DNA of 64,000 nt. It comes from an uncultured bacterium (GTDB lineage: Bacteria > Hydrogenedentota > CAZGCA01 > CBFDCQ01). Below the pieces are notes generated by a model. That model worked only from the letters and a program-made list of their open reading frames with translations, had not been told where the DNA came from and made no database searches. Shown here in pieces: positions 10,956 through 13,772 of this stretch; positions within the stretch are counted from its first letter, which is position 1, and the number at the start of each line of letters is the position of its first letter. The DNA lies in the NCBI GenBank assembly GCA_965603355.1, contig CBFDCQ010000001.1, positions 106,350 through 170,349 of the forward strand, in the 5' to 3' direction. The position numbers were made by a program, and so were the translations under genes.

Positions 10956-13772
10956 TCAGCCCGGCTTTAGCGGGCTCCTCTTTGCAGCCCGCCGGGCACA
11001 TAATGCCAGAGTCGCCACAACGATAGCGGTAATCGTTCCCGCAAGGACAGGGTAACGGACGGCCAGTCCTACAAAAGCGACTGCCGGTTTCAGAACGAAG
11101 CGCACCGCTGCCCTGAGAGGCGCTCGGATCGACATGAACCGCGCAAGCGGCGGGCTATGCCTGTAGTACGCTCTGACGAGCGCACATCCTGCCCGATTCG
11201 TCAGCAGATACTTGTCCCTGAACTCGCGTAAGGCAGCTACCTCGTCAACCGAGGGCGTGCCGTACGCCGCGGTTGCTATGAAACAGGGCCCGCTGCTGCT
11301 GCCTCCACCGAGGCGCCGAGGAAGTGACGGTATGGAACCCGGGTTGAGCGGGTTCGTTCCCTGTGCGACCTCCGTTCCGTCTGAGTAACCGTCGTTGTCA
11401 GTATCACGGTCAAGCGGATCGGTACCGCAGACATTGACTTCCTGGCCGTCGGTAAGCCCGTCTCCGTCGGTATCCGGGTTGTCTCGGTCCGTCCCGATCA
11501 CCGCCTCCTCATTGTTGGTCAGACCATCATGGTCAGCATCGGGAGACTGGGTAGATAACAGGAGCGCCAGCAACCCGCCCTCTCTGCCGGCTGCAAGATC
11601 GGGGTATCCGTCCTCATCGAAATCCCCCGCAACGAAACTACGCAGGTTCGCTCCCACCTCGTAGGGGAAGGCCGCCTGAAACGTGCCGTCACCATTGCCA
11701 AACAGGATCGAGACACCCCCCCCACCATAATAGTACCAAGAAAACCAGTTTGTCACGGCCAAATCGCTATGACCGTCCTGGTCGAAATCCGCTATGATTA
11801 TGCCCTCAGGAGAAGTGCCCGCCGTGTAGCCGACCGCTTCCCCGAACGTGCCATCGCCGTTGCCGAGCAGCACAAGAACTTCGTTTCCGTAGTCGTTGGC
11901 AACCGCGAGGTCGGCATGCCCGTTGAGGTCGAAATCCCCGCTCGCGATGCCTTTGGGTCCTCCCCCTGCGGCATATGAAAGTGCCGGCTGGAACGTGCCG
12001 TCACCATCGGCCAGGAATATGGACACTTCGTCGCTCTCCGTGTTGGTCAACGCCAGGTCGGTGCGGCCGTCGCCATCAAAGTCGGCAACCGCCATGCCCA
12101 CGGGTCCCTCTCCCACGGCATATGAAACGGCGGACTGGAACGTTCCATCACCATTGCCGAGCAGCACAGAAACGATGCCTGCCTCCCAATGCTTCACCAG
12201 CAAATCCGCGTAACCGTTGCCATCGAAGTCGCCAGCCGTTATGCTTCCGGGTCCTTCTCCCACAGCATATGAGACTGCCGATTGAAAGGTCCCGTCACCG
12301 CTGCCCAGCAATATCGACACGTCGTCGCTGTCCCGGTTGGCTACAGCGAGGTCGGTGTGGCCGTCCCGGTCAAGGTCAGCGGTCGTCAAGCATAGGGGAT
12401 AATCACCAGCGGTGTAGTCTATGGCGGTCTGAAACGTACCGTCTCCGTGACCAAGCAGCACGGATACGCTGTCGTCGCCACCGTTGGCCGCGGCGAGATC
12501 AGTGTGGCCGTCCTCATCGAAATCGCCGACGGTGGCATCGGACAGGCGACGTTCTACACTCTGACTCAACGCCGCCTGGAAGGTGCTGTCACCGTTCCCG
12601 AACACTACTGAAACGCTCCCGTCCCAACCGTCCGAATCGTAGCTGCCCCACTCCGCCATGATGAGGTCCGGCTGGCCGTCGCGGTCAACGTCCTCCATCG
12701 CAAGGTGATACGGGTGCGTGCCGGACGCATAGCTCAAAGCTGTCCGGAATGTACCGTCACCGTTGCCTAGCAGTACCGTGACGGCGTCCCTGGACATGCT
12801 GCTCACCGCCAGGTCCACGTGCCCGTCGCCGTCACAGTCCCCGATCGTGATACGCGTTGGACGGAACCCCGTATCGTAATCCATCGCTGTCCCGAACGTG
12901 CCGGTGCCGTCGCCAAGCAGCACAGACACTGCGCCGCTTATCCCCCTGGTCACCGCGAGGTCAGTGTATCCGTCCTGGTTGAAATCCCATGACGCCAGGC
13001 TGCCAACGTACTCTCCGACGGGGTACTCGACCGCTTCCTGGAACGTCCCGTCACCGTTGCCGGACAGGACCCAAATGTCGCCAGCCTGAGTTTCCCAGTC
13101 TCCTTCGGCTACAACCATGTCGGTATGGCCGTTCCCGTCAAAGTCACCCGTGGCAATATCTTCAAAGTGCATGTGCGCGAGCCCTTCAAGCACTTCATAC
13201 TCCACCGCTTCCTGGAACGTACCATCACCGTTACCGAGACAAACCAAAACGCCCCAGTAGGCCGAGCTTGTCGCGAGGTCAATATGGCCGTCCTCGTCAA
13301 AGTCTCCTGTCAGAATGATGCCCGGGGAGAAGGCAGCATAATTGACCGCTGTCTGAAACGTACCGTCACCGTTGCCGAGCAGCACGGAAACGTCATTGCT
13401 CGTTATGTTCGTCACAGCCAGGTCCGTATGGCCGTCTTCATCGAAGTCCCCCGTCGCTATATGGTCCGGCACCGACCCGGCATCGCAGTTCCACGCTGTA
13501 AAGAACGTGCCGTCGCCCCGACCGAGCAAAACGGGAACGATGTTCCACTCTTGGTTAGTCACGATCACGTCGATAAGGCCGTCCTCATCGAAATCTCCCG
13601 TGGCCATACGGTGCGGCGAGAAGCCAAGCCAGTTGCCCACCCGACTGGGAAACAAGGGGTGTTGTGCGGCGGCTGTGGCTTGGAGGCCGACCACCACCGC
13701 GAGTGTGACGAATATCAAAACCGGGCTATGCAGTTTTCCACCAACTCCCCCTTCATCGTGCGCGTTTCTCAT
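10956..13772 (-). CDS. secreted FG-GAP/VCBS repeat protein: two 7-bladed beta-propellers, thrombospondin type-3-like Ca-binding repeats, C-terminal '[11 protein letters not shown]' box, TM helix and basic tail
   Basis: Fourteen repeats of '(T/A)GDFD(E/G)DGHTDLAV' with interleaved '[10 protein letters not shown]'. TSP3-like '[12 protein letters not shown] / [12 protein letters not shown]' repeats follow. The C-terminus has ...[14 protein letters not shown]... then a hydrophobic helix ([18 protein letters not shown]) and [12 protein letters not shown]. The start is taken at MRNAHDE... (13772) ahead of a signal-like segment; the ORF-track start is 13838. Confidence 0.85.
   Translation of the reverse strand: [938 protein letters not shown]

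Follow-up and report, generated by a model that had tools for sequence, protein, structure and literature searches.

The stretch of DNA analysed here (the window) comprises 64,000 nucleotides (nt) of contig CBFDCQ010000001.1 from an uncultured bacterium of the Hydrogenedentota. Its minus strand carries a gene for an exported protein of 938 residues, which combines FG-GAP propeller and TSP3 repeats with a C-terminal tail opened by the motif CFIATAAYG, the CFI box. A preliminary description had suggested that this tail might be an unrecognised, possibly lineage-specific sorting or anchoring signal. The tail is in fact a full-length, above-threshold member of a catalogued family, NCBIfam NF041770. 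The features of the gene are the following.

10956-13772, minus strand: gene for the exported FG-GAP/TSP3/CFI-box protein of 938 residues (from the list of open reading frames, an ATG with GGAGG upstream and the gene calls in the European Nucleotide Archive, ENA)
13665-13772, minus strand: predicted Sec signal peptide with basic n-region, 14-residue hydrophobic core and a cleavage-type site between AAA and Q
11340-11540, minus strand: three calcium-binding TSP3 repeats, the last module of the passenger (Pfam PF18884, TSP3_bac, E=1.8e-16, three stretches)
11286-11318, minus strand: Gly/Ser-rich linker of 11 residues, ending at the invariant Cys
11259-11285, minus strand: CFI box CFIATAAYG, its Cys being position 1 of the NF041770 model
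11079-11285, minus strand: CFI-box-CTERM domain of 69 residues (NF041770), residues 852-920 of the 960-residue open reading frame and 830-898 of the 938-residue protein
11058-11120, minus strand: last helix of the CFI domain, amphipathic and basic as judged by hydrophobic moment and charge
10995-11054, minus strand: predicted transmembrane (TM) helix of 20 residues, beyond the end of the NCBIfam model (mean Kyte-Doolittle hydropathy 2.13 over 19 residues; helix 94-118 of the tail in the AlphaFold2 model)
10959-10994, minus strand: basic, presumptively cytoplasmic tail of 12 residues with five Lys or Arg and no Asp or Glu, followed by the stop codon at 10956-10958

The mechanically derived open reading frame reaches a GTG at 13838 and would encode 960 residues (10956-13838, minus strand). 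Translation probably begins at the ATG at 13772, giving 938 residues; GGAGG is found 8 nt upstream of this ATG, and the 938-residue form is the gene call on nine ENA metagenome contigs. With this start the N-terminus has, on inspection, the features of a typical Sec signal peptide. FG-GAP propeller repeats (Pfam FG-GAP_3, E=2e-90 in 13 stretches, and FG-GAP) make up the body of the protein, and the three bacterial TSP3 repeats (TSP3_bac) come after them. The 40 residues from the end of the CFI domain to the stop codon consist of the TM helix and the basic tail and nothing else. The box at 11259-11285, the TM helix and the basic tail had all been placed correctly, behind the TSP3 repeats, by the preliminary description.

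Scored against NF041770 (CFI_box_CTERM), the tail reached 86.9 bits (E=5.6e-25) at a curated cutoff of 40 and aligned with model positions 1-69 of 69. NF041770 was the only match when the 124-residue tail was scanned against NCBIfam at E<=1; no MYXO-, JDVT-, Synerg-, CGP-, PEP-, GlyGly- or PGF-CTERM model and no LPXTG model matched. The signal is not an unrecognised one, since "CFI-box-CTERM domain-containing protein" is already in use as a RefSeq protein name. Outside NCBIfam, Pfam gave no family for the tail at E<=1, a sequence-profile search of the PDB gave nothing at E<=10, and Foldseek of the tail model against the PDB gave DsbA at E=7 only, which is meaningless. In the text library searched, neither the name of the domain nor its motif led to a paper. 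That the tail is a chance hydrophobic C-terminus devoid of conserved function could have been argued from the box, which occurs a single time in the 64-kb window; the full-length match and the tens of thousands of homologues across phyla refute this, and we give it practically no credence.

The preliminary description had also remarked on an unusually long spacer between motif and TM segment. This segment, of about 69 residues, is no spacer; it is the strongly conserved domain itself. The 10-mer CFIATAAYG[TS] was identical in 117 of 121 homologues, in two forms (n=108 and n=9), the others being CFIATAAFGS (three sequences) and CFIASAAYGT (one). In a diverse alignment of 23 sequences the residues C, F, I, A, A, A and G of the box are invariant, and after them L, R, D, L, G, V, YY, SP, A, R and L. 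The Cys did not vary in any of the more than 260 relatives examined. The window protein shares with the family the CFIATAAYG start, the motifs LR.FRD and YY..SPP.A, the terminal amphipathic helix and the C-terminal position. It differs in what follows: the 69-position model ends before the TM helix, whereas the window protein and most metagenomic relatives add a TM helix and a basic tail. The AlphaFold2 model of the tail has five helices, namely the box, three more and the TM helix (mean pLDDT 83, about 90 over the core), and according to this model the CFI domain is all-helical. Within its last helix, the 18-residue segment at 11067-11120 has a hydrophobic moment of 0.42 and a net charge of +3.

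A Gly/Ser-rich linker before the Cys is also present in other members of the family. The residue directly preceding the Cys (position -1) varies; in the 121 sequences it is G (44), P (15), W (9), S (7) or F, I, M and others. Lipidation at a lipobox ([LVI][ASTVI][GAS]C) was considered and rejected: the -1 residue varies too widely, and the Cys lies about 830 residues into the protein, behind the Gly/Ser linker and not after the h-region of the signal peptide.

Among the members examined the CFI domain is always found at the C-terminal end. Four matches with two domains (P0121-P0124) were candidates for an internal position; as each second half begins with its own signal peptide, they are read-through fusions of tandem CFI genes. 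A related case was seen in a Nitrospirota locus (L010, 548-2149), where the CFI box, TM helix and an RRR tail continue in frame into a further stretch of about 270 residues, which has a signal-peptide-like start of its own and an outer-membrane-barrel-like C-terminus (…RYRLFIGTRIGL). Either a stop codon is missing here, or the fusion is genuine.

Among 1.84 billion cluster representatives, a profile search assigned 29,426 to the family at E<=1e-3, of which 21,946 also passed E<=1e-10. With each GTDB species represented by one genome, an exact search for CFIATAAY gave at least 599 sites, 584 of which were confirmed. The carriers include Dehalococcoidia, in which the family is abundant, and other Chloroflexota, Nitrospirota, Desulfobacterota, Geobacter relatives, Omnitrophota, Planctomycetota, Aminicenantes, Elusimicrobia, Armatimonadetes, Saccharibacteria, Syntrophomonadaceae, Firmicutes, Gamma- and Alphaproteobacteria, and Hydrogenedentota. 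With this distribution the family is not lineage-specific, as had been thought possible. The closest relatives of the window protein are from Hydrogenedentes-like bins (63-68% identity); homologues across phyla are 40-68% identical. Several genomes have two to four CFI loci among the 80 matches listed (CAZNPC four, JBATUN three, JACUUR three), and tandem pairs of CFI genes occur. Among 50,697 phage records, one phage-plasmid carried a CFI domain. The passengers are unrelated to each other and of extracellular type: TSP3, InlB B-repeat (Flg_new_2), RCC1_2, CBM_X2, Big_5, He_PIG, DUF11, LRR_4, RHS and cadherin-like. An N-terminal hydrophobic segment was present in 79 of the 101 complete representatives of the TM-bearing type; those lacking it look like fragments of extracellular repeat proteins. 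The window tail is an ordinary copy of a very widespread, catalogued module.

The family falls into three architectural classes. Class I, the majority, has the arrangement of the window protein: signal peptide, passenger, CFI domain, TM helix and basic tail. From the Cys to the C-terminus these proteins have 96-121 residues (75-121 over all relatives); the TM helix of the relatives has a mean Kyte-Doolittle hydropathy of 2.33 and is followed by a median of four Lys or Arg and one Asp or Glu. Class II (about 20 members) has signal peptide, passenger and CFI domain, and ends about 75 residues after the Cys with neither TM helix nor basic tail. Its C-terminus is a strongly amphipathic cationic helix, for example LKALVRKLLKPLVWLAKRLI. 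For the last-helix segment the mean moment is 0.58 and the mean charge +3.8 in class II, versus 0.34 and +2.2 in class I. The class II tails scanned scored 98-111 bits on NF041770, above the window copy with 87-91 bits; evidently the curated model describes a domain without any TM helix.

Class III comprises CFI domains on proteins with neither signal peptide nor TM helix. Examples are a Burkholderia plasmid protein with cold-shock domain, zinc ribbon and CFI domain (WP_111021824.1), a TPR-like (tetratricopeptide repeat-like) protein of an Acinetobacter lwoffii plasmid (WP_086045005.1), a zinc-ribbon protein of the Clostridioides phage-plasmid pCD1602_4, and many small proteins of 90-147 residues that consist of a charged peptide and CYIATAVYGSYDCPEVWTLRRFRD... 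The seven class III proteins scanned were full-length NF041770 matches with 72-94 bits.

Two further observations concern the small class III proteins. Most of those numbered P0264-P0280 have a second Cys 12 residues past the first (CYIATAVYGSYDCP), which the exported classes do not have; it could form a metal site or a disulfide that staples helix 1 to helix 2. One of the small proteins, P0269, which has no signal peptide, is encoded (L167, 5001-5345; loci L167-L170) between a nuclease of the Mrr_cat/NA-iREase1 type and a RelB/YafQ toxin-antitoxin pair, with HEPN and T5orf172/ResIII genes upstream of the nuclease. This setting resembles a defence island, which hints that in class III the domain might serve as a membrane effector.

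We consider it probable that the window protein is held by a type-I membrane anchor, and that its CFI domain is a membrane-proximal, membrane-interacting module. Directed by its N-terminal signal peptide, the FG-GAP protein would leave the cytoplasm by the Sec route until the C-terminal TM helix and the basic tail halt it as a stop-transfer anchor of positive-inside orientation. The FG-GAP propellers and the calcium-binding TSP3 repeats would thus be displayed on the outer face of the cytoplasmic membrane. The CFI domain of 69 residues would be a helical module that sits at the membrane surface, interacts with the membrane and possibly also self-associates; its binding to the membrane is suggested by its sequence. 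As the CFI domain is also found on exported proteins without TM helix and on proteins without signal peptide, an autonomous membrane-contact module fits better than the recognition site of a sorting protease. If the contact is with the bilayer, the domain would be usable on either membrane face. With its signal peptide, ectodomain, single TM helix and positive-inside tail, the window protein has all that a plain stop-transfer (type I) anchor requires, and these suffice for anchoring. Such an anchor, however, needs neither a domain of 69 residues with 40-68% identity across phyla nor an invariant Cys.

Several points weigh against the anchor interpretation. The box is conserved beyond the needs of a packing helix, with 117 of 121 10-mers identical and a Cys that never varies, and such conservation suggests a site that is read by an enzyme or takes part in chemistry. 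An anchor does not explain the role of the Cys, at which cleavage or modification is possible. In a diderm, an anchor in the inner membrane alone would leave the ectodomain of a large, adhesin-like protein in the periplasm, and therefore further processing or transport is plausible. A GspC paralogue follows the CFI genes of one subfamily, which points to a role linked to a machinery that simple anchoring does not predict. Finally, sorting enzymes are often encoded far from their substrates; the negative result of our neighbourhood searches, described below, is therefore weak evidence.

The GspC paralogue (GspC') is encoded by a gene with Pfam T2SSC and PDZ domains. In L017, L021, L048, L055, L058 and L060 this gene starts where the CFI gene stops, or overlaps its end. 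The best NCBIfam match of GspC' is GspC_delta with 71-105 bits, which is under the equivalog cutoff of 150. When metagenome contigs were searched with a GspC' profile, every GspC-like open reading frame at E<=1e-65 had a CFI gene immediately upstream (L085-L089, L095, L097, L108 and L124, with duplicates L084, L110 and L125), whereas none of the 67 ordinary GspC loci (E 1e-18 to 1e-46) had one. In total, a CFI gene directly precedes a GspC paralogue in 15 distinct loci, several of them in clusters resembling a type II secretion system (T2SS). Several of the clusters contain PilM/N and a secretin, together with PilO, GspE or GspF where annotated, and a second, ordinary GspC. The genes of L060 and L124 are arranged as adhesin, CFI protein, GspC', PilM/N, (in L124) PilO, secretin, second GspC and GspE, followed in L060 by GspF. 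L097 has the same sizes and order of open reading frames, including the second GspC, and L108 agrees up to the end of its contig. The CFI proteins paired with GspC' are mostly of class II; the one in L058 (Aminicenantes) is of class I, with TM helix and the tail RRRLRKQRV. A dedicated GspC paralogue always follows the CFI gene in Omnitrophota-like lineages, often within a type II secretion cluster, which is a new lead. T2SS or type IV pilus-type genes were also found within 10 kb of a CFI gene in Geomonas (L056) and in a Geobacteraceae bin (L051). A local hidden Markov model (HMM) of GspC' detected no GspC-like open reading frame in the window.

At one of these loci (L048, 3861-6537, Omnitrophota) genes for an apolipoprotein N-acyltransferase (Lnt) and a subtilase come directly after the CFI-GspC' pair. 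The Lnt gene deserves mention because the Cys of the CFI box is invariant; the arrangement was seen a single time.

The contrast between the 15 CFI-GspC' loci and the 67 ordinary gspC loci without a CFI gene gives rise to a second interpretation, in which the CFI domain would serve for docking or targeting and be recognised by the dedicated GspC paralogue of a T2SS; it would then be a sequence-defined tag for cargo or for surface display. The TM-bearing form in the window would then be parked in the inner membrane and possibly released at the Cys. We hold this to be unlikely.

The preliminary description had likened the tail to the tripartite signals of exosortases and sortases. In this case, by analogy with the known systems, the protein would be exported by Sec, an enzyme encoded elsewhere would cut at or near the Cys and attach the passenger to a lipid or another component of the envelope, and in diderms a T2SS would move the product to the surface. 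We regard a processed signal of this kind as somewhat unlikely. The attributes of tripartite C-terminal sorting signals have been listed by Haft (10.1101/2023.06.07.544157), and seven of the eight are present, entirely or in part, in the window protein and its TM-bearing relatives: the C-terminal site, multiple copies per genome in the relatives, an invariant start motif, a TM helix, a basic cluster, signal peptides and unrelated passengers. The C-terminal location and the invariant motif are also found in the family at large, whose members are alike only within the signal. The succession of motif, TM helix and basic cluster, by contrast, holds for the window protein but is not a constant architecture of the family. 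Taken as a whole, the list describes the window protein and does not describe the family.

The Cys that opens the CFI domain has parallels in the MYXO-, JDVT-, Synerg- and CGP-CTERM signals. These systems need a T2SS, Synerg-CTERM with a GspC variant of its own; for MYXO-CTERM, routing by the T2SS comes after cleavage by the CPBP protease myxosortase. CFI proteins resemble them in the C-terminal, Cys-opened signal with TM helix and Arg/Lys cluster, in the signal peptides, in the unrelated passengers and in the occurrence of several copies per genome. In some lineages CFI genes are moreover linked to a variant GspC and T2SS, as in the 15 loci above, including L058 with its TM-bearing tail like that of the window protein. 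The differences are considerable, however. Known tripartite signals have little or no spacer, whereas in CFI proteins a conserved helical stretch of about 60 residues comes between the Cys motif and the TM helix. The family contains the full-length members without TM helix and basic tail (class II) and others without signal peptide. CPBP genes adjoin ordinary gspC genes and not CFI genes, and no known sorting-signal HMM matches the tail at E<=1. The family is also abundant in Dehalococcoidia, which are not known to have an outer membrane or a T2SS. Since the conserved unit excludes TM helix and basic cluster, and occurs without them and on proteins that are not exported, the CFI box is probably not primarily the recognition site of an intramembrane sorting protease.

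In the GlyGly-CTERM/rhombosortase system, with VesB of Vibrio, the C-terminal tag is described as holding the exported protein at the inner membrane before its T2SS-dependent display on the surface. The window protein is similar in having a C-terminal tag on an exported protein and a predicted hold at the inner membrane. Its tail has no GlyGly motif and no match to the corresponding HMM, and there is no rhomboid gene in the window or among 119 CFI neighbours. What remains of the comparison with sortase-type signals is the outward form in the window protein; it does not extend to a family with TM-less and signal-peptide-less members and with no enzyme recurring nearby. A match to a known domain unrelated to sorting had been named beforehand as speaking against a sorting signal. 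The domain is indeed a known one; that it has a part in sorting looks doubtful when all members of the family are considered.

We searched for a processing enzyme in the window and around other CFI genes. By Pfam, the larger open reading frames of the window include no sortase, exosortase, rhomboid, CPBP protease or T2SS gene. They encode a sigma/anti-sigma pair, an SSF transporter, a GAF-HD response regulator, an amidase, NifU/NifS, pyridoxal phosphate (PLP) enzymes, a radical-SAM/SPASM protein, glycosyltransferases, a sulfatase, FapA, GroEL and an ATP-binding cassette (ABC) system. All-vs-all blastp clustering of 2,142 open reading frames from 80 CFI loci revealed no neighbour common to the loci in general; an ABC ATPase and the GspC-like group formed the largest clusters. 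In a Pfam scan of the 119 immediately adjacent open reading frames no family occurred more than four times, and rhomboids were absent. A scan near CFI genes for the CPBP motif (EExxxR...FxxxH...HxxxN/D) gave a few spurious regular-expression matches and no credible protease. No CPBP, rhomboid, exosortase or sortase gene therefore recurs near CFI genes. The radical-SAM/SPASM gene of the window (30629-31891) was considered as a modifier of the CFI box and rejected: it is 17 kb away, and radical SAM is outside the 25 commonest families in the 119 neighbours.

A separate finding relates to CPBP proteases and gspC. In about 20 metagenome loci (L113, L116-L123, L127, L128, L140-L144, L147, L148, L150, L158 and L159) a gene for a CPBP-family intramembrane protease of about 250-335 residues (EEVFFRGY…HGLAN) lies shortly upstream of an ordinary gspC, mostly with a gap of about 90-300 nt and abutting in L144. 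A CFI-box gene is present in none of them. This adjacency echoes the published link between myxosortase and the T2SS.

A mechanism that needs no external enzyme would be a self-cleaving release module, in which the Cys at the junction attacks the preceding peptide bond (N-to-S acyl shift) and frees the passenger. Such a mechanism would be akin to that of the intramolecular chaperone auto-processing domains found in phage tail spikes and in the membrane-tethered factor MYRF, where the domain is next to a TM anchor. An invariant Cys of nucleophile type, situated exactly at the domain boundary behind a flexible Gly-rich linker and preceded by a variable residue, would be consistent with such a module, as would the lack of a partner enzyme near CFI genes; the presence of the domain on exported as well as non-exported proteins suits chemistry that is independent of an enzyme. 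The best fold match in BFVD was a phage intramolecular chaperone auto-processing protein (probability 0.87, TM-score 0.47, root-mean-square deviation 2.9 Å over 78 columns), but its E of 1.3 is weak and the aligned part of the 492-residue target is not visible. The PDB holds solved auto-processing domains, yet Foldseek found none below E=7 there, and Pfam, which includes Peptidase_S74 (PF13884), had no match to the tail at E<=1. The CFI domain resembles the Peptidase S74 domain as a C-terminal helical module opened by a nucleophilic residue at the junction with the passenger. It differs in that the nucleophile would be Cys and not Ser, in the absence of a Ser-Lys dyad motif, and in showing no similarity in sequence or to a PDB fold; no conserved His, Lys or Thr partner is evident beside the Cys. 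The BFVD match is the one positive indication of self-cleavage, which seems very improbable to us.

The surroundings of the gene in the window contain the following elements and genes.

10906-10925, no strand: perfect 10+10 palindrome GGGCGGTTCG/CGAACCGCCC, 31 nt after the stop codon of the FG-GAP gene
10614-10640 and 10670-10696: inverted repeat with arms of 27 nt (CGTCATTCCCGCGAAGGCGGGAATCCA / TGGTTCCCCGCCTTCGCGGGGATGACG) in the intergenic region 10458-10955 downstream of the FG-GAP gene
8757-10457, minus strand: gene for a multi-pass membrane protein of 371 residues without Pfam or NCBIfam family, then gene for a DUF6141 protein
13958-18028, minus strand: upstream of the FG-GAP gene, gene for an exported protein of 1,356 residues with two right-handed beta-helix blocks, TSP3, PKD and NCBIfam 'choice-of-anchor Q'
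25144-27594, minus strand: open reading frame of 816 residues that fuses a Cys/Met-metabolism PLP enzyme domain to a class-V aminotransferase (NifS-like) domain
30629-33002, minus strand: radical-SAM/SPASM gene overlapping a family-2/21 glycosyltransferase gene by about 110 nt

The palindrome is possibly a transcript-end hairpin; no run of T follows it. Each of the 27-nt arms could form a hairpin by itself, and the repeat looks like a repetitive extragenic palindromic (REP) element. A loose pattern search showed no enrichment elsewhere in the window. The genes for the 371-residue protein and the DUF6141 protein are kept together with the FG-GAP gene on all ENA contigs that carry the latter. 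In the 1,356-residue protein a C-terminal module of about 170 residues is duplicated (…VKVVYSQPTCFACYDD…APVLGVEY, …IKVTYTEPGCVAYRDL…APVLGVSY); the module has no family match, and the protein has no C-terminal anchor. The 816-residue PLP fusion adjoins a PALP enzyme and lies opposite a NifU-NifS pair.

The window gene is best annotated as encoding an FG-GAP/TSP3 surface protein that has a CFI-box-CTERM domain and, at its C-terminus, a membrane anchor. The CFI family, which counts tens of thousands of clusters, is among the most widespread C-terminal modules of bacterial surface proteins. Its members without TM helix, its members without signal peptide and the subfamily strictly paired with a GspC paralogue offer handles on the function of the CFI domain.

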